From: Allomuricauda sp.
Lineage (GTDB): Bacteria; Bacteroidota; Bacteroidia; Flavobacteriales; Flavobacteriaceae
DNA: 64,000 bases
Reading direction: 5' to 3'
NCBI GenBank assembly: GCA_048270465.1
Contig: JBLWSV010000003.1
Coordinates: 96,843 to 160,842, forward strand
Below the pieces are notes generated by a model. That model did no database searches. It was not told where the DNA came from and saw only the letters and a list, made by a program, of their open reading frames with translations. How positions within the stretch are numbered: position 1 is the stretch's first letter; each line of letters begins with the position of its first letter. Shown in pieces: positions 15,038-25,580 of this stretch. Made by a program: the position numbers and the translations under genes.

Positions 15038-15535
15038 ATGACAGACCCATTTCCCAAAAGAGAATATTTTTCTGTAGCCGATGCCACCAAAAAATTGGAG
15101 CATTATTGTGCCTACCAAGAGCGATGTCATTATGAAGTGGCAGAAAAACTTAAGGGGATGAACATGATCCCCGAAGCGATAGACCAAATTGTGGGACACC
15201 TCATCCAAGAAAACTACTTGAACGAGGAACGGTTCGCCAAAAGTTTTGCAAGGGGAAAGTTCAATATTAAAAAATGGGGGAAAAATAGAATTGTCAGGGA
15301 ATTGAAGCTACGCCAGATATCGGTGTTCAACATCAAGAGCGCGCTCAAGGAAATTGACAATGCCCAATATGTACAGACCCTCGATGATCTTGCCAAAAAG
15401 AGACTCGCGCAGATCAGGGAGACCAATGTCCAAAAGAAAAAGAAAAAATTGGCAGATTACCTGCTGTACCGCGGTTGGGAAAGCCACTTGGTCTATGAAA
15501 AAATTACTGAACTTATTGCGGACAAAACCGTTTAG
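15038..15535 (+). CDS. recX: RecA regulator RecX
   Basis: YCAYQERC, YLNEERFAKSF, WGKNRIVREL, YLLYRGW. Confidence 0.9.
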   Translation: MTDPFPKREYFSVADATKKLEHYCAYQERCHYEVAEKLKGMNMIPEAIDQIVGHLIQENYLNEERFAKSFARGKFNIKKWGKNRIVRELKLRQISVFNIKSALKEIDNAQYVQTLDDLAKKRLAQIRETNVQKKKKKLADYLLYRGWESHLVYEKITELIADKTV

Positions 15536-16407
15536 GTCCACTTTTGCGTCATCACTTTTTCGGTGCGCAGAATGGCTTGCTCATTTTTCCAGTCAATCCA
15601 CTGTTGGCCTTTCAACTTCCGCATCAGGTTGTCAAAATGGCGCATAAAAAATATGTTGTAAACGGCCTGCCCAAAATTTTTGGGCTTTCTGGCTATGGCT
15701 CGCAAACTCATAGAAAAACCAGGTGTAATGTACTTCATGTAGTGCCAATACCCTTCGGGTATATAGAGTATGTTTCCGTGTTCCAATTGGGCAATGTGTC
15801 CCTTGGCATGTCGTAAGGCCGGCCATTTTTCAAGGTCGGGGTCATCAAAATCGATATCTTCCCTTGTAATCAAGGAATGTGGGATTTTATACAGGAATTT
15901 GGTCTCGGACTGCGCATACAGAATGCACTGTTTTTTTCCTTCAAAATGAAAATGGAAGATGTTGGCCAAATCGATATCGTAATGCATGAAAGTGTACGAA
16001 TCCTCTCCCCCAAAAAACAACATGGGCAGGCCTTTCATCAATCGTAAACCGAAATCGGGATATTGGAAGTCCTTTTGGAGTTCGGGCACTTCCTTTAAAA
16101 TGTTCCAAAGAAAAATACGGTACCTTGTTGGGCCACTCTTCAACAGATCCACATAATCCGTCATCCTCATTTTGGCATGGGGCTGGTTGAATCCTTCATC
16201 ATGCTTGACCGGACGATCATCATACAAAGGTACTTCCTTGTCGCCCGCAATTTTCTTCATGTAGTCGAGACTCCATTTGGAATAAGCTGGCCAATCCTCA
16301 ATAAACCGCTCGATCACTACAGGCTTTTGGGGCTTGAAATATTTTTGGATAAACTCCTTTCTGGTAAGAGTTGTCTCCCGAGGTATCTGTTCAAGATTCA
16401 GCTTCAA
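15532..16407 (-). CDS. JmjC/cupin-like Fe(II)/2-oxoglutarate-dependent oxygenase
   Basis: TTG start; KPVVIERFIEDWPA, HYD (HxD), GKK, LYIPEGYWH (distal His). Confidence 0.85.
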   Translation of the reverse strand: MKLNLEQIPRETTLTRKEFIQKYFKPQKPVVIERFIEDWPAYSKWSLDYMKKIAGDKEVPLYDDRPVKHDEGFNQPHAKMRMTDYVDLLKSGPTRYRIFLWNILKEVPELQKDFQYPDFGLRLMKGLPMLFFGGEDSYTFMHYDIDLANIFHFHFEGKKQCILYAQSETKFLYKIPHSLITREDIDFDDPDLEKWPALRHAKGHIAQLEHGNILYIPEGYWHYMKYITPGFSMSLRAIARKPKNFGQAVYNIFFMRHFDNLMRKLKGQQWIDWKNEQAILRTEKVMTQKWT

Positions 16408-16465
16408 GATTTCAAGGAATTAGAAACCGCTAAATTACTAAAACGTTTTGAAATGGTTATGGGAG

Positions 16466-17566
16466 CTATCCCTTGGAGACCAATTTGCCTTTCTCCTTGG
16501 CCGCTTCATTTCTGTCGATCACATGTCCTGGTCTTGACCATTTTGGCTTTTCACCCATGGGCACATATTCGGAATCGTTTGCTTCAACAGTTTGGGGCTG
16601 CGGAGCCTTCACAAATGCTTTTTGTGGATTAAGTCCCAGTTGTTTGAACATTTCCATGTCCTCGTTTACATCGGGATTTGGCGTGGTAAGCAACTTATCC
16701 CCGGCAAAAATGGAGTTGGCTCCGGCAAAAAAGCACAATGCCTGCCCTTCCCTGCTCATGCCCGTCCTTCCAGCAGATAACCTCACCTGTGTCTGCGGCA
16801 TAACGATCCGGGTCGTGGCCACCATACGGATCATTTCCCAGATTTCCACCGGCTTCTGATCTTCCATCGGTGTGCCTTCCACTGCGACCAATGCATTGAT
16901 GGGGACAGATTCCGGCTGTGGGTTCAATGTGGACAGTGCCACCAACATTCCTGCACGGTCTTCCACCGATTCCCCCATCCCGATGATTCCCCCACTGCAA
17001 ACGGTAACATTCGTTTTTCGAACATTCTCTATGGTCTGGAGACGATCTTCGTACCCTCTTGTGGAGATTACTTCCTTATAATATTCCTCAGAAGTGTCCA
17101 AGTTGTGGTTATAGGCATACAATCCTGCTTCGGCCAGTCTTTTGGCTTGGTTTTCGGTGACCATACCCAGGGTGCAGCACACTTCCATGTCCAATTTATT
17201 GATGGTACGTACCATTTCCAATACCTGATCAAACTCGGGGCCGTCCTTAACGTTTCGCCATGCAGCACCCATACAGACCCTTGAGCTACCCGAGGCCTTG
17301 GCGCGGAGCGCTTGGGCTTTTACCTGCTGAACGGACATCAAGTCGTTCCCTTCAACATTGGTGTGGTACCGTGCTGCCTGTGGGCAATAGCCACAATCTT
17401 CGGGACAGCCCCCTGTTTTTATGGAAAGCAAGGTAGATACCTGCACGGTATTGGGGTCGTGATATGCCCTGTGCACAGTGGCCGCTTCATACAGCAGTTC
17501 CATTAAGGGCTTGTTATATATATCCAGAATTTCTTCCTTGGTCCAGTTATGTCTTGTACTGTTCAT
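16466..17566 (-). CDS. bioB: Biotin synthase
   Basis: Radical-SAM [54 protein letters not shown]. Confidence 0.97.
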
Positions 17567-17585
17567 ATTTCTTGGGTCTCTGTTT

Positions 17586-17593
17586 CAAAAGTA
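17586..17593 (-). promoter_or_regulatory. -7 element, internal promoter for bioB
   Basis: TACTTTTG on minus strand, 19 nt before the bioB ATG. Confidence 0.55.
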
Positions 17594-17630
17594 AGGCATT
17601 CCATCCATAAAATGGAATAGAGGTCTTTTT

Positions 17631-18818
17631 TTAAGAATCTGGTCTTCTGTTCAGCAATATACTAACGGCATTCCCCCCAAAACCCACAGCATTGACCAAC
17701 ACTTTGTTTATTTGGTTTGACGGGGCTTGGTTCCCAAAAAAGGGAGAGGCAATGTAGTGTTGTTTTTGGAGCATCATCACGGCCATTTCCAAGCTCAACA
17801 GTCCCGAAGCACCAAAGGTGTGTCCCACTTTCCATTTGTTGGTGGTCAAAAATGGATGGTCATTGCCAAATACTTTTTTTATGGCATTGTATTCCGATAC
17901 ATCTCCTTTTACGGTCCCAGGAGCGTGCATTACCACGGCATCGACTTCTGATGGGTCCAAACGGCCCAAGGCCATTCTCATGGCATCTTGAAAACATTGG
18001 GCATCGGTGCTTATGGAAACGCTGTGTTGCAAGGGTTCGGTGGCATAACCCACCCCTCCCACAAATGCGAAGGCATTTGTTTTGGATCCTTTTTCCAAAC
18101 AGGCCAATCCTGCGGCCTCTCCCAACACCATGGTATTCTGTGTTTTATGAAGGTCCATGGCTCTGCAGGGGTACTCATCTCTCGACTGCGCTGGAAATGA
18201 CACCTTGGAATAAACTTTTAAGGCCTGCATTTGGGCAATAGTGAACGGAGTCAAGGGGGCTTCGCTGCCTCCAACCAAAAATTTGTCCGCCATGCCGCTC
18301 TGTATCCAGGCTACGGCATTCAAAACCGCATGAAGTGCCGTGGAGCAGGTAATGGAATGTGAGATTTCAGGTCCTTTGGATTTTAAATCGTGGGCCACCC
18401 ACGATGAAATGTTGCCCAAAGTGGTCGAAGGTGATGATAAGGTAGAAGATTTTCTCGCTGTCAAAAACTCTTGGTGGTATTTTTCAAAAAGAGAGGTTGC
18501 ACCCCGTGACGAACCGATATTGATGCCAAAATGGGAACCTTCGTCCCAACTGGCCCTTTCTACCGCACTTCTTGCAGCATAGATGGCAAACAATACCGAG
18601 TCATCCAAAAACCTGTACTTGGCATCGGATTGTCGCAGATCCTCAATTTCCTTTTTTATTGCTTTGGGCAATTGGGACGCCCAAACCGATTGTTCCCCAA
18701 TCCTGACATCTTCCAAAAAATGTTCATCGCTCTGGTAGGATTGCCAGATTTCATCAAAGGTTTGTCCCATTGACGAGATGGAGGTAATGGCCGTTATGGA
18801 AATGGGTTCTTTCAACAT
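17631..18818 (-). CDS. Beta-ketoacyl-ACP synthase, FabF/FabB type
   Basis: Cys-His-His triad: SITCST, MHAPGT, KVGHTFGASG; C-terminal NAVGFGG; 9 nt after the bioA stop. Confidence 0.88.
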   Translation of the reverse strand: MLKEPISITAITSISSMGQTFDEIWQSYQSDEHFLEDVRIGEQSVWASQLPKAIKKEIEDLRQSDAKYRFLDDSVLFAIYAARSAVERASWDEGSHFGINIGSSRGATSLFEKYHQEFLTARKSSTLSSPSTTLGNISSWVAHDLKSKGPEISHSITCSTALHAVLNAVAWIQSGMADKFLVGGSEAPLTPFTIAQMQALKVYSKVSFPAQSRDEYPCRAMDLHKTQNTMVLGEAAGLACLEKGSKTNAFAFVGGVGYATEPLQHSVSISTDAQCFQDAMRMALGRLDPSEVDAVVMHAPGTVKGDVSEYNAIKKVFGNDHPFLTTNKWKVGHTFGASGLLSLEMAVMMLQKQHYIASPFFGNQAPSNQINKVLVNAVGFGGNAVSILLNRRPDS

Positions 18819-18827
18819 ATTCTAACC

Positions 18828-20096
18828 TTAGACCAATTCAAATGAAGAACGTATGGCACCATAAATCTGTTGCATTTGGTCTTTTGTGGTCACATAAGGG
18901 GCCAAAATATAAATGGTGTTCCCCAATGGCCTTAAAAATACACCTTGGTCCATGAAATGGTTGAAGAGCTTGTTGCGTAAATTGCCGTAACGTTCCATTT
19001 TCACATCCAAATCCAAGGCATAAATAATGCCCAATTGCCGTGTTTTGGCCACCTTAGGGTGGTTTTTGATCTGCTTGTCAAACTCTTGGTGCCAACCTGT
19101 TATGTCCTCTATTTTCTGCTGTATTTCTTGGGTCTGGAGCAGTTCCAGGGCGGCCAAGGCCGCGGTACAGGCCAATGGGTTGGCCGTGTAGGTATGCCCG
19201 TGAAAGAGTCCTTTTGCCACATCATCGCTATAAAAAGCCAAGTACACTTCATCCGTGCAAGTGGTGAGGCCCATGGGCACCAGGCCCGCGGTCAATGCTT
19301 TGGACAGGCACATGATATCAGGCTTCGTCTGTAAATAATCGGATGCGAAGTACTTTCCTGTTTTGCCAAAGCCCGTCATCACCTCATCGGCAATGGTGAG
19401 CACCTTGTGTTTTTGCAGTAATGCCAAAATTTTATCAAGACCATCAGCATCATGCATCTTCATGGCGGCCGCACCTTGAACCAAAGGCTCATAAATAAAG
19501 CCAGCAATATTGTTCTGCTTCAAACGCTTTGCCAGTTGATTTAGGATATCACCGATATTATCTTTTGTGGGCACTGGAATCCGTTCCACTTCAATAAAGA
19601 AATCCTCAAACGGGCCATTGTACACCGAAAGACCAGAAACGGACATGGCACCAAAGGTGTCCCCATGGAAACCTTCTTCAAAGGCCAACAAAACATTGCG
19701 CTTTTCCCCCTTGTTGAAATGGTACTGCAAAGCCATTTTGATCCCAATCTCAGTAGCTGTGGATCCATTGTCCGAAAAAAACAGTTTTTCTTGGTTGTCG
19801 GGCAATATTTTAATGAGCTCTTCGGAAAGCCTCACCGCAGGTTCGTGGGTAAACCCGCTAAAAACCACTTGGTCCAGACGTTGCATCTGATCGGCCACCT
19901 TTTCCAAAATATAGGGGTTGCAATGTCCGTACATACAGGTGTACCATGACGAGATTCCGTCCACATAAGTCTTTCCTTCCTCATCGATGAGCAATGCCCC
20001 CTTGGCGCTGGCAATGGCCAGCATTTCGGGACTGGTCTTGTGCTGGGTCAATGGGTGCCAAAGGTGTTTTTTGTCCCTTTCCGATAATTTTTCCAC
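18828..20096 (-). CDS. bioA: Adenosylmethionine-8-amino-7-oxononanoate transaminase
   Basis: WHPLTQH, DGISSWY, FHGDTFG, IADEVMTGFGKTG, SKALTAG, HGHTYTAN; start set at GTG 20096 because a TAAATTTG element (20128-20121) overlaps the ORF-track TTG. Confidence 0.95.
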   Translation of the reverse strand: MEKLSERDKKHLWHPLTQHKTSPEMLAIASAKGALLIDEEGKTYVDGISSWYTCMYGHCNPYILEKVADQMQRLDQVVFSGFTHEPAVRLSEELIKILPDNQEKLFFSDNGSTATEIGIKMALQYHFNKGEKRNVLLAFEEGFHGDTFGAMSVSGLSVYNGPFEDFFIEVERIPVPTKDNIGDILNQLAKRLKQNNIAGFIYEPLVQGAAAMKMHDADGLDKILALLQKHKVLTIADEVMTGFGKTGKYFASDYLQTKPDIMCLSKALTAGLVPMGLTTCTDEVYLAFYSDDVAKGLFHGHTYTANPLACTAALAALELLQTQEIQQKIEDITGWHQEFDKQIKNHPKVAKTRQLGIIYALDLDVKMERYGNLRNKLFNHFMDQGVFLRPLGNTIYILAPYVTTKDQMQQIYGAIRSSFELV

Positions 20097-20152
20097 TACT
20101 AAGGAGTCTCTCAAAACATTCAAATTTATCTATATTGCAAAGATGATAATTA

Positions 20153-21652
20153 ATGCCCAAAAAGGGCAATAGGACCGTGCTTAAAAAAATCTGCCATCCC
20201 GATTACAAGAACCTTGACTGGAAGACCGTCTTTTTGGTTTTGTTCATAGTCGCCTTCTTCATCCGTTTTCCATTCTTTTTTCGGGACTATATCGATCGGG
20301 ATGAAAGCACCTTTATCCTTTTGGGTCAATCTTGGGTGGATGGCCATCTGCCCTATACCCAGCTTTGGGACCTTAAACCACCTATCACCTTTCTCTATTT
20401 TGCCCTTATCATCAAATTTTTTGGCAAGAGTTTTTTTGCCATTCGGCTGTTCGGCACTCTGATGGTCGCCCTCACTGCACTATTTACATACGGTATGGCC
20501 ACAAAGCTCACGAGCAAAAAAGTGGCATTTTGGACCGCTATGTTCTGTATCTTTTTCCAGAGTCTGTTCGGCAGCCTGCAAGGGGTTATGTCCGAGCACA
20601 TCTGTACCTTCTTTTTTGCTGTGGGATTATATCTTTTGTTCTGCAAAGAAAGATGGTACTACTTTTTGGTCTCCGGGTTTCTTTTGGGGCTTTCCATTAT
20701 GTCCAAGTTAAACATGGCCTATCCTGCTTTCACTCTGGGCATTTATTTTTTGTGGGAAGGGTTCAGGACCAAACAGCCTGGGAGAACCCTTAAAAATTTG
20801 ATTTTTCTCGGTACCGGGATTATTTTCACTGTGTTGCTTACTGCTTTGCCCTACTATCTGGAGGGAAATATGCCGATTTGGTGGCAATCCATCTTTGAGG
20901 CCCCACTTGCCTATTCCGAGGGCAAGTTCCATTCCCCGTTAAGGACTTTGCCCTATGTAGGGATTGTTTCAGGGCTTCTGATTATAGGATTTACCACAAA
21001 ATTGATAGATCGAAGCTCAAGGTATATCCAAATTTTAACGGTTGTGCTTATTGGGGTTTTATTGTCCTTTGTGCAGGCCGGAAAGGTGAACGGGCATTAT
21101 CTGATCCAACTCTATCCTTTTATTTTGATTCTTTCGGGGATGGCCGTGGCCAAACTTCCAATTATCAAGAAGAAATATAACCTCTTGGTCATGACACTAC
21201 TGATCCTGATTCCCATGGAATCCTATTTGGAATATGCCAATATTGTGACCAATAAATTGGAAAAAGGATCTTTTTATAATGGCGAAGGCATTGATGTCCC
21301 CAGATACATTACCGATAATAAGCTATCCACGGAAAACATCTTCTTCACCGAATACCACATTGGATATTGGGTTTTGGGGGTAAACCCGCCTACCAAAGCG
21401 GCCACACACCCCAGCAACATTACCCGTGAAGAGTTGTTCCTTTATATGGACAACCCAAGAAAAACCGGTATTGAGGAATTAAAGTACATCATGGAAGTTA
21501 TCCAACCAAAAACTTTGGTGGCCAGAAGCGGCAAAAAAATATTTGATAAAAAATTGGTGGAATACAACACCTATATTGATGCTTATTTGGCCAAACACTA
21601 TCAACTGAAGACTACGGTGGGAAGAGGCCTTATTTACCAACGATTGGAATAA
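20153..21652 (+). CDS. GT-C fold membrane glycosyltransferase (ArnT/PMT-like)
   Basis: 499 aa, many TM segments; DRDESTF and WDLKPP loop motifs; start may be GTG 20177. Confidence 0.78.
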   Translation: MPKKGNRTVLKKICHPDYKNLDWKTVFLVLFIVAFFIRFPFFFRDYIDRDESTFILLGQSWVDGHLPYTQLWDLKPPITFLYFALIIKFFGKSFFAIRLFGTLMVALTALFTYGMATKLTSKKVAFWTAMFCIFFQSLFGSLQGVMSEHICTFFFAVGLYLLFCKERWYYFLVSGFLLGLSIMSKLNMAYPAFTLGIYFLWEGFRTKQPGRTLKNLIFLGTGIIFTVLLTALPYYLEGNMPIWWQSIFEAPLAYSEGKFHSPLRTLPYVGIVSGLLIIGFTTKLIDRSSRYIQILTVVLIGVLLSFVQAGKVNGHYLIQLYPFILILSGMAVAKLPIIKKKYNLLVMTLLILIPMESYLEYANIVTNKLEKGSFYNGEGIDVPRYITDNKLSTENIFFTEYHIGYWVLGVNPPTKAATHPSNITREELFLYMDNPRKTGIEELKYIMEVIQPKTLVARSGKKIFDKKLVEYNTYIDAYLAKHYQLKTTVGRGLIYQRLE

Positions 21653-21831
21653 CTCCCCAGTGCTGGATCAGCTCTTCTTGAAAACCGTTAAATAATATAT
21701 CTGAATTTTTCCCGTTAAAGCTCTGGGTTACCTTGGTTGCCCGCAGCATATTTATCGCCCCATTACTTTTTGCCAAACAGGTTTCCTCTCCAGTTTTTGG
21801 GGTTGTCCAATACCAAATCTTATATGCTGCG

Positions 21832-23496
21832 ATGGTCAAAAACCTGCTCACTCTTGTTTGTAAGGGTAAATCTTTTCCTGTGTTATCCCTTCTTTTTTTA
21901 TTTCTGTATTCCATTTCTCTATTTCTTAACTTGGGAGTTGCCCCTTTTTACAATGAAGAGCCCAGAAGGTCCATAATCGCTATGGAAATGTTGTTCAACA
22001 AAAACTTTGTGGTAACCACGCTTTTTAATGACGTGTTTTATGACCATCCTCCTTTGTGGAACATTGTTTTGGCTGGAAGTTACTGGTTATTCGGCACCGA
22101 CACCGAATTTGCCTTCAGGTTTCCCTCTGCCCTATCACTGCTATTGACCGGGGCCGTGGTCTATTTCATGGGGAAAAAATATGTGGGACATATCTTCGGA
22201 ATCATTTCGGCTTTTTTGTACCTGATTTCGGCAGACCTCTATTTTTTCTTTTCCAATACCGCTGAGATCGACATCTTTTTCTCTCTTCTGGTCTTATTGA
22301 GTGTTTTGTGCATCTTTCATTTCCATGAACAGAAAAGGTTCACGCCGCTCTTTCTGGGCGCCTATTTTTTCTGTTTTTTGGGATTCCTTACCAAAGGGGT
22401 GGTGGCCCTTGTTTTTTTGGGCATATCGTTTCTGGTTTTCTTCTTTTTTAAAAAGGAGCTTAAAAAATTGTTCCTGCCCGTTCACTTTGTTTGCGCTTTA
22501 CTATGCGTGGGAGGTATTGCAATGTTTTTCTACATCTATGCACAGTATGATGATGCCTATGCCTACGTGGAAGGAATGTGGCGCATAACAAGGAACAAAT
22601 CCTTCTTGGACGAACAAAACAATGCCTTTTTCTCCCACTTTTTATGGTTTCCCCTTAATATGCTCGGGAATCTGTTCCCGGCCACTTTGTTGGTCTTTTT
22701 TCTCTTCAAAAAATCTGTGATTGCCAAGATCAAAGAGAATGGGTACCTGATGTTCTTGTTCCTGGTTTTCGTTTCAAACTTTGTTGTTTACTGGATTTCC
22801 CCAGGGGCCAAAGCACGTTACACCTATATGTTCTATCCTATGCTCATCAGTATTTTGACCTTTGCCTTTTTGGTTTATGGGAACAAAGAAGGATGGAAAA
22901 CGAAGCTTTTGTTCAGTGTCTTTTCCCTGATTACATTATTACTGGGGATAGGTTGTCTCATTCTTCCTTTTGTTGACTATTTTGAAGTAATAAAAGGTCT
23001 GGATTATATTGCCCTGTTCTTTGGAATCTCTGCACTGTGCCTATTCCTTCTGCAACAAAGCACAAGTGACTTTTGGAGCAGATTGATAATGGGTTTAATG
23101 GGCATTGTTATGGTCAAATTGGTGTTTTCACTCACCATTTACCCATTAAAGCAACAGAAAAGCTCCTCGTCCACCTTCAAAGATCACGCTAAAAACATTT
23201 TGGACATCACCAAAGATTCGCCCATTTATCTATATTCAAAGACAGGTTCCTTTGGCCACCATAACATTGGAAAGTTTTACACCACTGGGGCCTATTTGGA
23301 ACTTTTGGGAAATCAATCCCTCAAAAAAACTTCTTCCCATGAAGAGAGCGGTTACTATATTCTCCACAAGGAAGAATTAAAAAATCAAAAGGTCTTATAT
23401 ACCATTGATAACCGCACGAGTTGTCTTGTGCTTATTAAAAATGAAGAAGATCATTACGGAACTTGGTCGCATAATCCTGAACCATCTGTTTATTAA
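21832..23496 (+). CDS. ArnT-family (GT83-like) membrane glycosyltransferase
   Basis: Likely start ATG 21832; EEPRRSIIAMEM, YDHPPLW, AFRFPSAL, LTKG motifs; polytopic. Confidence 0.8.
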   Translation: MVKNLLTLVCKGKSFPVLSLLFLFLYSISLFLNLGVAPFYNEEPRRSIIAMEMLFNKNFVVTTLFNDVFYDHPPLWNIVLAGSYWLFGTDTEFAFRFPSALSLLLTGAVVYFMGKKYVGHIFGIISAFLYLISADLYFFFSNTAEIDIFFSLLVLLSVLCIFHFHEQKRFTPLFLGAYFFCFLGFLTKGVVALVFLGISFLVFFFFKKELKKLFLPVHFVCALLCVGGIAMFFYIYAQYDDAYAYVEGMWRITRNKSFLDEQNNAFFSHFLWFPLNMLGNLFPATLLVFFLFKKSVIAKIKENGYLMFLFLVFVSNFVVYWISPGAKARYTYMFYPMLISILTFAFLVYGNKEGWKTKLLFSVFSLITLLLGIGCLILPFVDYFEVIKGLDYIALFFGISALCLFLLQQSTSDFWSRLIMGLMGIVMVKLVFSLTIYPLKQQKSSSSTFKDHAKNILDITKDSPIYLYSKTGSFGHHNIGKFYTTGAYLELLGNQSLKKTSSHEESGYYILHKEELKNQKVLYTIDNRTSCLVLIKNEEDHYGTWSHNPEPSVY

Positions 23497-24049
23497 AACA
23501 AGGTTCCTCATCAATCCGACCCAAATATTTTGTCTTGGATTTCCTCAAGATGATTTCCTCTGTGGTCGGATGTTCGTCCCCACTGAAAATGATGCCGATT
23601 TCCACGTTCTTTTGTTGCAATTTTTCAATGGTCAACAAGGTGTGGTTGATGCTTCCCAGATAATGCCGGGACACCACGATTACTTTGTAATCCGGTTGGA
23701 TCAGGTCAAAAATGGTATCGGTATCGTTCAAGGGAACCAACAGGCCTCCGGCCCCCTCGACCACCAAATGATTATCGGTTTTTGGGGGCACAATTTTCTC
23801 CAGATCAATGACAATTCCGTCAATGGCCGCTGCTGCATGGGGGCTCATGGGGGTTTTCAGGGCATAACTGTTCGGATGGATGACCGTTTTGCTGTTGGAA
23901 ATAAGGGATTCGACCTTATGGCTGTCAGAGTTTTCGAGATCTCCTGCCTGGACTGGTTTCCAATAATCGGCTTGGAGCGATTCCACAACAATGGCCGAAG
24001 CCACTGTTTTTCCAACCTCTGTTGATATTCCTGTGACGAATAGTTTCAT
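23435..24049 (-). CDS. bioD: Dethiobiotin synthetase
   Basis: Start ATG 24049 (ATGA overlap); LFVTGISTEVGKT P-loop, YWKPVQAG, VEGAGGLLVPLN, LGSINHTLL. Confidence 0.96.
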   Translation of the reverse strand: MKLFVTGISTEVGKTVASAIVVESLQADYWKPVQAGDLENSDSHKVESLISNSKTVIHPNSYALKTPMSPHAAAAIDGIVIDLEKIVPPKTDNHLVVEGAGGLLVPLNDTDTIFDLIQPDYKVIVVSRHYLGSINHTLLTIEKLQQKNVEIGIIFSGDEHPTTEEIILRKSKTKYLGRIDEEPCFNKQMVQDYATKFRNDLLHF

Positions 24050-24432
24050 CGGGACGGTTTTGTGATGAAATTGCACTGCATGCACTGATATTTTTTTGGC
24101 TCAAAAAAGGGAAATAGTTTGTAGAAAATATTTTTTCTGGAATAATAGATTTCCGATTTCGCCTCCTTACAGTTAGGGCAGACCACCGGATGGCCAAAAT
24201 CGTCCGTGGCATAGTTCCTGACCTCATCATAAATTTCTTTGGCCAGCTCCTTGTCCGTTGAGTACACTTGAAGTTTTACCCCGCCAATGGCAGTACTGAT
24301 CAAAGGATCGGAGTTTATGGTGGCTTCATCCCTTAGAAAAACAGTGATTCCCTCTGCTTCCAATTTTCCCTTGATGATGAGGGCATCGGCAGGAAACTCA
24401 AATGTGCCCAAAGTGTGAAATTCCTGTTCCAT
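24046..24432 (-). CDS. DUF2007-like protein with C-terminal zinc ribbon
   Basis: 128 aa; IIKGKLEAEGI..GGVKLQV N-domain; CPNC...CMQC; TAATG overlap with bioF, ATGA overlap with bioD. Confidence 0.78.
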   Translation of the reverse strand: MEQEFHTLGTFEFPADALIIKGKLEAEGITVFLRDEATINSDPLISTAIGGVKLQVYSTDKELAKEIYDEVRNYATDDFGHPVVCPNCKEAKSEIYYSRKNIFYKLFPFFEPKKYQCMQCNFITKPSR

Positions 24433-25580
24433 TACGCTATCTCGTTTTTCAATAAGGACAAAATTCGTGATATTTCCTCACTTGTGTTATAGGCATGCAA
24501 ACAAAAACGCAACCGTTCCTGTCCTTCTTTTACGGTTGGGGACAAAATGGGCTTTACGTCAAACCCTTCCTTTTGCAATTCTTTGGCCACGGCCTTCACT
24601 TTGGCATTCCCGGGGACCAACATGCATTGTATGGCGGAATGGCTTTGGATGAACCTGTCCGAAAGCTGCAATCGTTCCATTTCATGCTTAAAATGGGCAA
24701 TGTTACCGTGAAGTTGTTCGGCAATGTGCGCTCCGTTCCCCTTTAAAAAATCGTAGGCAGCCAAAATTGAGGCCACTGCATGGGGTGGAAGTGCCGTGGT
24801 ATAGATAAAGCTCCTCGCAAAATTGATCAAATAGTCCGTGAGCGGCCTGCTGCCCAAAATAGCGGCACCATGGCATCCCATGGCTTTGCCAAAGGTAATG
24901 ATCCGGGCAAAAACTTCCGTTTCCAGACCCAGCTCGGATATCAAATCGGTTCCCTTTCCAAAAACGCCCGTTGCATGGGCTTCATCCACCACCAAAAAGC
25001 AGTTGTTCTCCTTGCATAGCTTGGCCATTCCCCAGAGGTCGGGGGAATCGCCGTCCATGGAGAAAACGGATTCGGTCACAATATAGATTTCTGTTGAGCC
25101 GTCCATATTTCGACTGCGCTCAATATGACGGCTTAAATCCTCAATATCATTATGGGCAAACTTGTAGCTTTTGGCATGTCCCATTTGCATGCCATCCCGA
25201 ATGCTGGCATGGACCAGTTCATCAAAAAGCACTATGTCGCCCCGTTGTGGGACCGAGGAGAAAAACCCGATGTTGGCATCATATCCGGAATTGAACACCA
25301 GAGCTGTATCGGCATGGTGGTGTGCTGCCAAAAATTCCTCCAGTTTTGGGTAAAGTGCATGGTTCCCGGAAAGCAATCTTGATCCCGAGGCGCCATTTTT
25401 AAGTTCCATTCCCTCCAAAAACTTGTGGGCCGCTCGGACCAGTTCCCCATTTCGGGCCAAACCCAAATAGTCATTGGATGAAAAATCGACAAGATTGCCC
25501 ACGGACTGCAAGCTCCTTATGGCATTTTTCTGCAAGCGTTCGGCCAGTTTGGCCTGTAACTTTCCGGGCGTCCTCTCCAT
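24432..25580 (-). CDS. bioF: 8-amino-7-oxononanoate synthase
   Basis: FSSNDYLGL, GSRLLSG, FNSGYDAN, DELVHAS, ESVFSMDGD, VDEAHATG, TFGKAMG, RLRFCLH. Confidence 0.95.
   Translation of the reverse strand: MERTPGKLQAKLAERLQKNAIRSLQSVGNLVDFSSNDYLGLARNGELVRAAHKFLEGMELKNGASGSRLLSGNHALYPKLEEFLAAHHHADTALVFNSGYDANIGFFSSVPQRGDIVLFDELVHASIRDGMQMGHAKSYKFAHNDIEDLSRHIERSRNMDGSTEIYIVTESVFSMDGDSPDLWGMAKLCKENNCFLVVDEAHATGVFGKGTDLISELGLETEVFARIITFGKAMGCHGAAILGSRPLTDYLINFARSFIYTTALPPHAVASILAAYDFLKGNGAHIAEQLHGNIAHFKHEMERLQLSDRFIQSHSAIQCMLVPGNAKVKAVAKELQKEGFDVKPILSPTVKEGQERLRFCLHAYNTSEEISRILSLLKNEIA

Follow-up and report, generated by a model that had tools for sequence, protein, structure and literature searches.

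A divergent ketosynthase as candidate pimeloyl-arm enzyme in the biotin clusters of Flavobacteriaceae

How does a bacterium obtain the pimeloyl thioester consumed by BioF when its genome encodes BioF, BioD, BioA and BioB and none of the recognised pimelate modules? The question is raised by a 64,000-nt stretch of DNA from Allomuricauda sp. (assembly GCA_048270465.1, contig JBLWSV010000003.1, positions 96,843-160,842 of the forward strand), hereafter called the window, which belongs to a host genome of 3.84 Mb in 28 contigs (100% complete). Within biotin biosynthesis it is the making of the pimelate arm that varies and is still incompletely known, and four routes have been characterised: BioC-BioH, BioW/BioI, BioZ and BioE. 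In the window, a gene for a divergent ketoacyl synthase, named here KAS for biotin-cluster ketosynthase, lies between bioA and bioB, and its distribution and gene order make it very probable that this enzyme supplies the pimeloyl thioester in place of BioC and BioH. The sequence-only reading of the window had placed bioF, bioD, bioA and bioB on one strand together with a zinc-ribbon gene, the ketosynthase and a JmjC oxygenase. All seven genes were recovered at those positions, and the KAS and the four biotin genes are the following:

17631-18818, minus strand: KAS, divergent condensing enzyme of FabF/FabB fold, candidate enzyme of the pimeloyl arm (PF00109, E 4.6e-21; PF02801, E 2.3e-16)
24432-25580, minus strand: bioF, 8-amino-7-oxononanoate synthase, which uses the pimeloyl thioester (PF00155; TIGR00858 at 343 bits, its best NCBIfam match, under the cut-off of 426)
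23435-24085, minus strand: bioD, dethiobiotin synthase (PF13500, E 7.6e-55; TIGR00347 at 117 bits, over cut-off)
18828-20123, minus strand: bioA, S-adenosylmethionine (SAM):7-keto-8-aminopelargonate (KAPA) aminotransferase, leading the bioA-KAS-bioB-JmjC run (TIGR00508 at 535 bits, over cut-off)
16466-17566, minus strand: bioB, biotin synthase (TIGR00433 at 405 bits, over cut-off; Radical_SAM and BATS domains)

The known pimelate modules were searched for in the whole host genome. The BioC model (TIGR02072) gave a top match of 57.5 bits against a cut-off of 184.95; the best BioC-like open reading frame (ORF) lies beside porT and was rejected as MenG/UbiE. The top BioH match reached 45.7 bits against 206.95. 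No match was found for BioG, for BioW (PF03744) or for cytochrome P450 including BioI (PF00067), and the Bacteroides BioG and B. subtilis BioW controls were both detected. BioK, BioJ and BioV, which were not searched one by one, are esterases needed only downstream of BioC. The genome encodes three FabH-like proteins, two ordinary FabH and a divergent one, none of them near bio genes; they score 120-244 bits on the BioZ-type model NF004623, the cut-off of which is 437. The divergent third gene (C17:6642-7694), at 120 bits and with no bio gene nearby, was rejected as BioZ. BioE was searched for with a 207-aa ORF carrying two ExxH motifs. This ORF comes from the Weeksellaceae-type locus of a genome of the same order, in which a divergently transcribed MocR-type regulator (bioL) is followed by the ORF and then by bioF-bioD-bioB-bioA, an arrangement that matches the published architecture. 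This query gave no match in the host genome at E ≤ 1, the best tblastn E being 2.4, and this negative is meaningful because the same query finds bio-linked copies of BioE in six other Bacteroidota genomes. The window had been read as free of any known pimelate gene, and the absence of BioC, BioH, BioG, BioW, P450, BioZ-type FabH and BioE thus extends to the whole genome. A canonical FabF is encoded elsewhere in it (C3, ~284-285 kb).

Linkage of the ketosynthase to the biotin genes

Co-occurrence was scored in 151 Flavobacteriaceae genera, one genome apiece, as presence or absence of BioB, KAS, the JmjC orthologue, the 128-aa zinc-ribbon protein (ZnR), BioC and glutaryl-coenzyme A (CoA) dehydrogenase (GcdH); the paired counts are given throughout as both / BioB only / partner only / neither. 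For BioB and KAS these counts are 90/4/0/57. Two of the four genomes with BioB and no KAS also have no BioA and are bioB-only dethiobiotin users, and the other two are ~81% complete. The KAS is also lost together with the biotin genes. In three genomes the ZnR and JmjC genes are kept next to recX and bioF, bioD, bioA, KAS and bioB have all disappeared together; in another one, only bioB-JmjC is left and KAS is gone along with bioF, bioD and bioA. A further genome carries bioF-ZnR-bioD-bioA-KAS at one locus and bioB-JmjC with recX at another.

Gene order was examined in a named set of 80 species loci, 56 of them full-length, which was obtained by a search with an alignment of eight KAS sequences and consists of Flavobacteriaceae throughout. 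In 55 of the 56 full-length loci bioA stands immediately upstream of KAS, with a median gap of 25 bp. Flavobacterium-type clusters read bioF-bioD-bioA-KAS with recX at the boundary, and bioB, with ZnR and JmjC both missing. Beyond the Flavobacteriaceae the KAS is still linked to bio genes, at 35-48% identity: bioA and KAS overlap in another family of the same class, a member of another Bacteroidota class has bioB..bioF-bioD-bioA-x-x-KAS, a metagenome contig has bioD-KAS-bioB, and Adhaeribacter aquaticus (Cytophagales) has a contiguous bioB-bioF-bioD-bioA-KAS with nothing else in the cluster. In a Marinimicrobia metagenome-assembled genome (MAG) the order is bioB-bioF-bioD-bioA-FA_hydroxylase-KAS. 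No JmjC or ZnR gene is present in any of these out-of-family clusters. Because the linkage of the KAS persists there while these two genes are absent, the KAS is a genuine member of the bio cluster.

Its distribution is also complementary to that of the known modules. Among 251 Bacteroidota genomes, 127 are BioA-positive, and these divide without any overlap into 85 with a BioC-like protein, 16 with KAS, five with a BioE-like protein and 21 with none of the three. The 85 BioC-like genomes all fall within two families, plus one other genome. The BioC model is able to recognise the protein in this phylum, since 90 genomes from two other families of the Bacteroidota gave BioC matches of the Bacteroides type; at E ≤ 1e-25, no BioC-like match was obtained in 150 of the 151 Flavobacteriaceae genera. 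A BioC over the cut-off occurs in one of the 151 genomes, a genome without KAS and with a bio cluster of another type. These results are in agreement with the earlier proposal of a dedicated Cys-His-His condensing enzyme as candidate for the C7 arm, which is borne out by co-occurrence with the biotin genes, adjacency, co-loss, distant linkage and exclusivity towards BioC and BioE; the synteny across Bacteroidota that had been named as a check was found for the KAS, distant lineages included.

Several clusters show features of their own. The Flavobacteriaceae genome with BioC (G005:C1:1908000-1926000) has the order bioB-bioA-bioF-(bioC)-bioD, its proteins are 30-38% identical to those of the window, and the cluster looks independently acquired. 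In the Marinimicrobia MAG, the gene between bioA and KAS (L125:6738-7994, plus strand) encodes a membrane diiron protein of the FA_hydroxylase family. Directly downstream (L125:9334-14716, minus strand) lies a full kynurenine-pathway block coding for formamidase, kynurenine monooxygenase, kynureninase, a protein like aminocarboxymuconate-semialdehyde decarboxylase (ACMSD), 3-hydroxyanthranilate dioxygenase (3-HAO) and RidA. The kynurenine pathway runs via 2-oxoadipate to glutaryl-CoA, which is the primer proposed below for the KAS. In a lineage outside the Flavobacteriia, an ORF of ~500 aa without significant Pfam family lies between bioB and bioF (L026:3367-4926 and L126:2136-3620), and two further ORFs of ~218 and ~171 aa, also without significant Pfam family, lie between bioA and KAS (L026:8035-9246 and L126:6729-7940); all three recur in these two independent assemblies.

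Family, conserved residues and predicted fold

The KAS carries both ketoacyl-synthase domains, PF00109 and PF02801, which define the KAS I/II superfamily. It falls below the cut-off of all 19 NCBIfam KAS models (141 bits against 493.75 for the FabF model TIGR03150, and 90 bits against 630 for the FabB model NF005935) and scores only ~90 bits against FabF structures. From these matches it is assigned to the KAS I/II superfamily as neither a FabF nor a FabB. A homologue search over 1.84 billion cluster representatives returned 388 clusters (50% identity) at E ≤ 1e-30, and the best 150 of these 388 all score at least 236 bits. In the tree, the KAS clade stands on a long branch, apart from E. coli FabF, FabB and the host's own FabF. 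In one genome (G106:C1:2657906-2659252) the match to the KAS is broken in two (residues 2-207 and 214-392) within a single open frame of 453 aa, which indicates an insertion of ~55 residues near position 210.

The residues Cys158, His298, Lys328, His333 and Phe380 align with C163, H303, K335, H340 and F400 of E. coli FabF. The catalytic Cys158, His298, Lys328 and His333 are invariant in 140 full-length representatives, from which all residue counts were taken, and the set with Phe380 included is invariant in 40-140 clade members. Neither the hydrophobic FabF/FabB pocket with the Ile108-Phe202 back gate nor the FabB glycine was found in the KAS. In the alignment, Arg105, invariant in 140 of 140 representatives, sits in the column of FabF Ile108 (I109 in UniProt numbering), and Met197 and Gln196 sit in the columns of Phe202 and Gly201. 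Ser129 replaces FabF Val134', and Ser129, Thr133, Asn136 and Thr193 occupy other positions that are Val, Ile, Met or Gly in FabF. Most of these residues are highly conserved (Ser129 and Gln196 in 139/140, Pro300 in 137/140, Thr133 and Phe192 in 136/140). In FabF, the I108-F202 back gate corresponds to about C7-C8 of the bound acyl chain (PMC9006962).

An AlphaFold model of the KAS was obtained with a predicted local distance difference test (pLDDT) of 90.4 and a predicted template modelling score (pTM) of 0.92. It superposes on FabF crystal structures with template modelling (TM) scores of 0.83-0.88 at 20-25% identity. The KAS thus resembles FabF in its fold, its catalytic Cys-His-His-Lys set, the gatekeeper Phe of the GFGG motif and its length; it differs from FabF in the low identity, the exchanges Ile108 to Arg, Val134' to Ser and Gly201 to Gln, the deletion of ~14 residues after the helix 335-352 and its location in a bio cluster.

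Proposed reaction and competing explanations

The candidate role is that of a dedicated condensing enzyme bypassing BioC and BioH, of a kind already known from BioZ, and on family, pocket and linkage we hold this to be highly probable. In BioZ, the Cys is loaded by glutaryl-CoA, Ser84 and Ser287 bind the C5 carboxyl and condensation takes place with malonyl-acyl carrier protein (ACP) (PMC7645780; PMC12625853). By analogy, the chances are about even that the KAS performs a BioZ-like single condensation of a glutaryl thioester with malonyl-ACP on a KAS I/II scaffold. Cys158 would be acylated by the glutaryl thioester (CoA or ACP), and Arg105 would hold the free omega-carboxylate with the assistance of Ser129, Thr133 and Gln196, which would replace the region of the FabF Ile108-Phe202 back gate. 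One decarboxylative condensation with malonyl-ACP, involving His298, His333, Lys328 and Phe380, would yield 3-oxopimeloyl-ACP. The housekeeping FabG, FabZ and FabI would then reduce it to the pimeloyl-ACP used by BioF; general fatty-acid-synthesis reductases do accept free-carboxyl C7 intermediates and finish pimeloyl-ACP (PMC12625853; PMC7645780). Three elements of this scheme are inferences: what the substrate is, what Arg105 does and that the general reductases take part. The host genome encodes a GcdH orthologue (443 bits to human GCDH), and because this gene is present, glutaryl-CoA is presumably a metabolite of the cell; a GcdH orthologue is found in 85 of the 90 KAS-positive genera.

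The likeness to BioZ (PMC7645780, PMC8024396, PMC12625853) lies in a condensing enzyme encoded in the bio cluster of a genome without BioC and BioH and, as proposed, in the bypass of methyl esters, a polar pocket bottom for the free omega-carboxyl and the completion of the product by general reductases. The two enzymes are nevertheless unrelated at family level within the thiolase superfamily. BioZ is a FabH-like KAS III of alpha-proteobacteria with a Cys-His-Asn triad and the domains PF08545/PF08541, whereas the KAS has the FabF/FabB fold, Cys-His-His-Lys and PF00109/PF02801; the carboxylate binders are Ser84/Ser287 in the former and, putatively, the invariant Arg105 in the latter. A second parallel, drawn from its published description, is the cluster DVU2558-DVU2565 of Desulfovibrio vulgaris, where a FabF-like ketosynthase (DVU2563) is encoded inside a bio cluster in a genome without bioC or bioH. 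The extended cluster is that of Rodionov 2004, as cited in PMC10102598, and the transposon fitness data are given in PMC10102598. The FabF-like, ACP, FabG-like and FabZ-like genes are all required for growth without biotin, and an elongation from malonyl-ACP 'without methyl esters' by means of less hydrophobic active sites has been proposed (PMC10102598). In that cluster an ACP, a FabG-like reductase and FabZ-like dehydratases are all reserved for the pathway, and a nitroreductase-like gene is needed as well, whereas the KAS is the sole extra enzyme here; the D. vulgaris type has been reported only from anaerobes of few phyla, the KAS cluster being found in aerobic Bacteroidota. The systems with BioC and BioH, or BioG, BioK, BioJ or BioV, serve the same step, pimeloyl-ACP for BioF being borrowed from fatty acid synthesis; they differ by their methyltransferase and esterase, and KAS and BioC are mutually exclusive in the 251-genome Bacteroidota sample. 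BioE-BioL (PMC12704756, PMC12915131) is likewise an alternative pimeloyl route of Weeksellaceae and other Bacteroidota without BioC, with BioE encoded beside bioF, but BioE is a ferritin-like diiron protein that cleaves long acyl chains oxidatively, the host has no BioE homologue and no genome of that sample combines a BioE-like protein with KAS. No paper on the biotin-cluster KAS was found in our literature searches, and searches for fitness data from Bacteroidota returned nothing. The sequence-only reading knew of no description of such a route; for the enzyme itself none was found, but the concept has precedents in BioZ (PMC7645780) and D. vulgaris (PMC10102598).

Four other explanations have to be weighed. 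The KAS could perform an iterative elongation free of methyl esters, which we regard as a tentative possibility: it would take a malonyl primer with its carboxylate intact and condense it with malonyl-ACP to 3-oxoglutaryl-ACP, and the glutaryl-ACP formed from this by reduction would undergo a second condensation that yields 3-oxopimeloyl-ACP. Arg105 would stand in for the methyl 'disguise' applied by BioC, with the chemistry proposed for D. vulgaris DVU2558-2565, where the requirement of a bio-cluster FabF-like gene for biotin synthesis 'without methyl esters' provides a genetic precedent (PMC10102598). Such a course would account for the missing BioC and BioH without outside glutarate, would fit the five KAS-positive genera without GcdH and is compatible with a polar pocket bearing an arginine. 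It is also possible, if somewhat doubtful, that a single FabF-fold enzyme with an arginine-capped pocket replaces the whole BioC/BioH disguise in this manner, using malonyl and then glutaryl primers with the ordinary ACP and reductases. However, the ACP, FabG-like and FabZ-like genes of the D. vulgaris cluster are absent here and in contiguous clusters such as that of Adhaeribacter; in the window, all ORFs of at least 80 aa from recX to the M61 peptidase gene are accounted for, and there is no dedicated ACP, FabG-like or FabZ-like gene among them. Moreover, the free end of 3-oxoglutaryl-ACP has the structure of a beta-keto acid and by established chemistry should readily decarboxylate, and for an arginine at the back gate (~C7-C8) a C3 acyl-enzyme is a poorer fit than a C5 one (PMC9006962). 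The BioZ-like single condensation is favoured over the iterative scheme because the KAS is the only enzyme added, the C7-C8 arginine suits a C5 acyl-enzyme, a 3-oxoglutaryl intermediate would be unstable and GcdH is encoded.

The sequence-only reading had grouped the JmjC oxygenase and the zinc-ribbon protein with the KAS as candidates for a new precursor pathway, in which the oxygenase possibly took part; as a joint module the three would act together, and an oxidative step would contribute to the C7 dicarboxylate. Oxidative pimelate routes exist in BioI and BioE (PMC12704756), the JmjC gene lies close behind bioB (median 64 bp in 52 loci), the ZnR gene, placed between bioF and bioD with translational coupling, is enriched in BioB-positive genera (59 vs 10), and the Marinimicrobia cluster has its FA_hydroxylase-family gene between bioA and KAS. 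This joint module is nonetheless very unlikely, and the comparison did not support a part for either protein. Thirty-four BioB-negative genera have the JmjC orthologue and 15 BioB-positive ones do not (79/15/34/23), ZnR is missing from 35 BioB-positive genera and present in ten BioB-negative ones (59/35/10/47), both remain where the locus has lost every bio gene, and neither occurs in Flavobacterium-type clusters, in that of Adhaeribacter or in the other distant KAS-bio clusters. The adjacency of JmjC and ZnR comes entirely from one family with inherited gene order, and the nearest relatives of the JmjC protein act on proteins or tRNA. It is equally hard to credit a cryptic BioC/esterase pathway, in which an unrecognised methyltransferase and esterase would be encoded elsewhere and the KAS would be merely a specialised elongating enzyme for methyl esters. 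Divergent SAM methyltransferases and alpha/beta hydrolases exist in large numbers, weak matches to BioC and BioH are present and replacement of the esterase is common (BioG, K, J, V; PMC3494674), but the top BioC-like ORF is MenG/UbiE and the BioC search that succeeds in 90 genomes of two other families is empty at E ≤ 1e-25 in 150 of 151 Flavobacteriaceae genera. A methyl-ester substrate would need no invariant arginine in the pocket, and E. coli FabF and FabB already elongate methyl esters, so that a dedicated KAS would be unneeded. Finally, a KAS unrelated to biotin, for instance a condensing enzyme for lipids or pigments kept beside bioA by inherited gene order, would be in keeping with the one clade member found outside any bio cluster, beside an amine oxidase gene; the BioB/KAS table with the co-loss of bioF, bioD and bioA, the adjacency to bioA, which at 35-48% identity persists between families and classes and into a second phylum, and the strict complementarity to BioC and BioE make it highly improbable.

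The following points weigh against a KAS that loads glutaryl and replaces BioC and BioH. The placement of Arg105 in the pocket is putative, as it derives from the alignment to FabF alone, and residues 121-140, Ser129 included, have low pLDDT in the monomer model. KAS I/II enzymes normally use acyl-ACP primers, and no evident route to glutaryl-ACP was found; FabY of P. aeruginosa belongs to the KAS I/II type and is primed with an acyl-CoA. Five of the 90 KAS-positive genera have no GcdH, three of these genomes being 99% complete, and GcdH was rejected as a marker of glutaryl-CoA supply, since it occurs in 135 of the 151 genera with or without KAS and does not discriminate. The most divergent Arg-bearing clade member, in a Sphingobacteriia MAG (L117:4241-7132), has no bio gene within 6 kb and overlaps an upstream gene for a flavin amine-oxidase-like protein by 4 bp; it may represent a second function of the clade or a scattered bio regulon. 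As the sampled genomes are related, the contingency counts overstate the independence of the observations. Lastly, 21 BioA-positive Bacteroidota contain none of the three modules (G151, G157, G193, G309, G344, G167, G229, G301, G261, G285, G348, G364, G153, G158, G222, G226, G155, G160, G165, G170 and G242), so that a pathway hole is no proof that a neighbouring gene fills it. In the five of them that were checked, the only paralogues are FabF-like ones (E 1e-13 to 1e-25), which lie at a distance from bioA and are cleanly separated from the bio-linked KAS at E ≤ 1e-52. These families may use at least one further pimelate route, or highly divergent forms of known ones.

Flavobacteria are regarded as being among the main marine producers of biotin (PMC9561691). 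The KAS is found, with no known pimelate route, in 90 of the 94 biotin-making Flavobacteriaceae genera sampled, and also in Hymenobacteraceae, other Bacteroidota and a Marinimicrobia MAG. If its proposed role is correct, it would fill a gap because of which biotin auxotrophy is wrongly predicted from the genomes of a large group. The KAS would also be a second, independent condensing enzyme re-tuned for omega-carboxy substrates, supply the engineering of biotin or C7-dicarboxylate production with a compact part made up of one gene, and open the Desulfovibrio hypothesis of less hydrophobic active sites to a direct test. Should the iterative scheme hold instead, it would constitute a fifth, methyl-ester-free and oxygen-independent route to pimeloyl-ACP, the main one in marine Flavobacteriaceae and reaching Cytophagales and Marinimicrobia.

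Neighbours of the biotin genes

The remaining genes of the locus are the following:

24046-24432, minus strand: ZnR, ORF of 128 aa (DUF2007 model PF09413, E 0.016; 15.8 bits, cut-off 25.7)
21733-23496, plus strand: PMT_2-family (ArnT-like) membrane glycosyltransferase (GT2), bystander (PF13231, E 9.6e-16)
20153-21652, plus strand: the other PMT_2-family glycosyltransferase, bystander (PF13231, E 8.1e-13)
15532-16407, minus strand: JmjC/Cupin_8 2-oxoglutarate oxygenase, JMJD5-like (PF13621, E 2.6e-30, 106.6 bits)
15038-15535, plus strand: recX, in convergent orientation to JmjC, at the conserved border of the locus (RecX_HTH2/3)

In the window, bioF and ZnR overlap by 1 bp and ZnR and bioD by 40 bp; the gaps are 9 bp between bioA and KAS, 64 bp between KAS and bioB and 58 bp between bioB and JmjC. 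These spacings suggest two operons, bioF-ZnR-bioD and bioA-KAS-bioB-JmjC. A scan for sigma-70 promoters and terminators, which does not cover Bacteroidota promoters, gave results at background level. The two putative operons are parted by the two plus-strand glycosyltransferase genes (20153-23496), which are paralogous and of PMT_2/ArnT type; the 3' end of the 21733-23496 gene overlaps that of bioD by ~60 bp. A homologue of the 20153-21652 gene stands between bioD and bioA in 19 of the 56 full-length loci and is missing from the remainder, and a homologue of GT2 is found at the same place in four of the 56. Because relatives carry one, the other or none of them, the pair is read from gene order as a lineage-specific insertion into an ancestral bioF-ZnR-bioD-bioA-KAS-bioB operon. 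Beyond the locus lie a glycoside-hydrolase-like gene on one side and genes for an M61 peptidase and a GNAT protein on the other, all of them unrelated. The recX gene adjoins JmjC or the bio cluster in 48 of the 56 full-length loci and is kept in bio-negative genomes too.

The JmjC and ZnR genes are probably conserved neighbours confined to Flavobacteriaceae, with other functions and outside the pathway, because they are kept in genomes without bio genes and missing from many complete clusters; they are not worth pursuing as members of the pathway. ZnR is composed of an N-terminal DUF2007/PII-like domain, weakly matched, a hydrophobic stretch and a C-terminal ribbon, C85xxC88 ... C117xxC120. 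It had been described as a zinc-ribbon DUF2007 gene: the CxxC...CxxC ribbon is plain, but the DUF2007 part of the assignment is weak, PF09413 remaining below its cut-off. No informative relative of ZnR was found.

The JmjC protein has the HxD...H iron triad of Cupin_8 as His142-x-Asp144 ... His222. Its closest matches in the PDB are JMJD5 (E 1e-24), then TYW5 and FIH, which are protein or tRNA hydroxylases, and the protein itself is probably a protein hydroxylase. The orthologue is always beside recX; in one genome (G018) it is split into two fragments. A JmjC paralogue, ~50% identical, is present in many Flavobacteriaceae, and second copies lie elsewhere in ~30 genomes. In three genomes the paralogue is found as a tandem duplicate right after bioB (G065:C1:66355-68081, G045:C8:70310-72042 and G137:C1:3716325-3718054).

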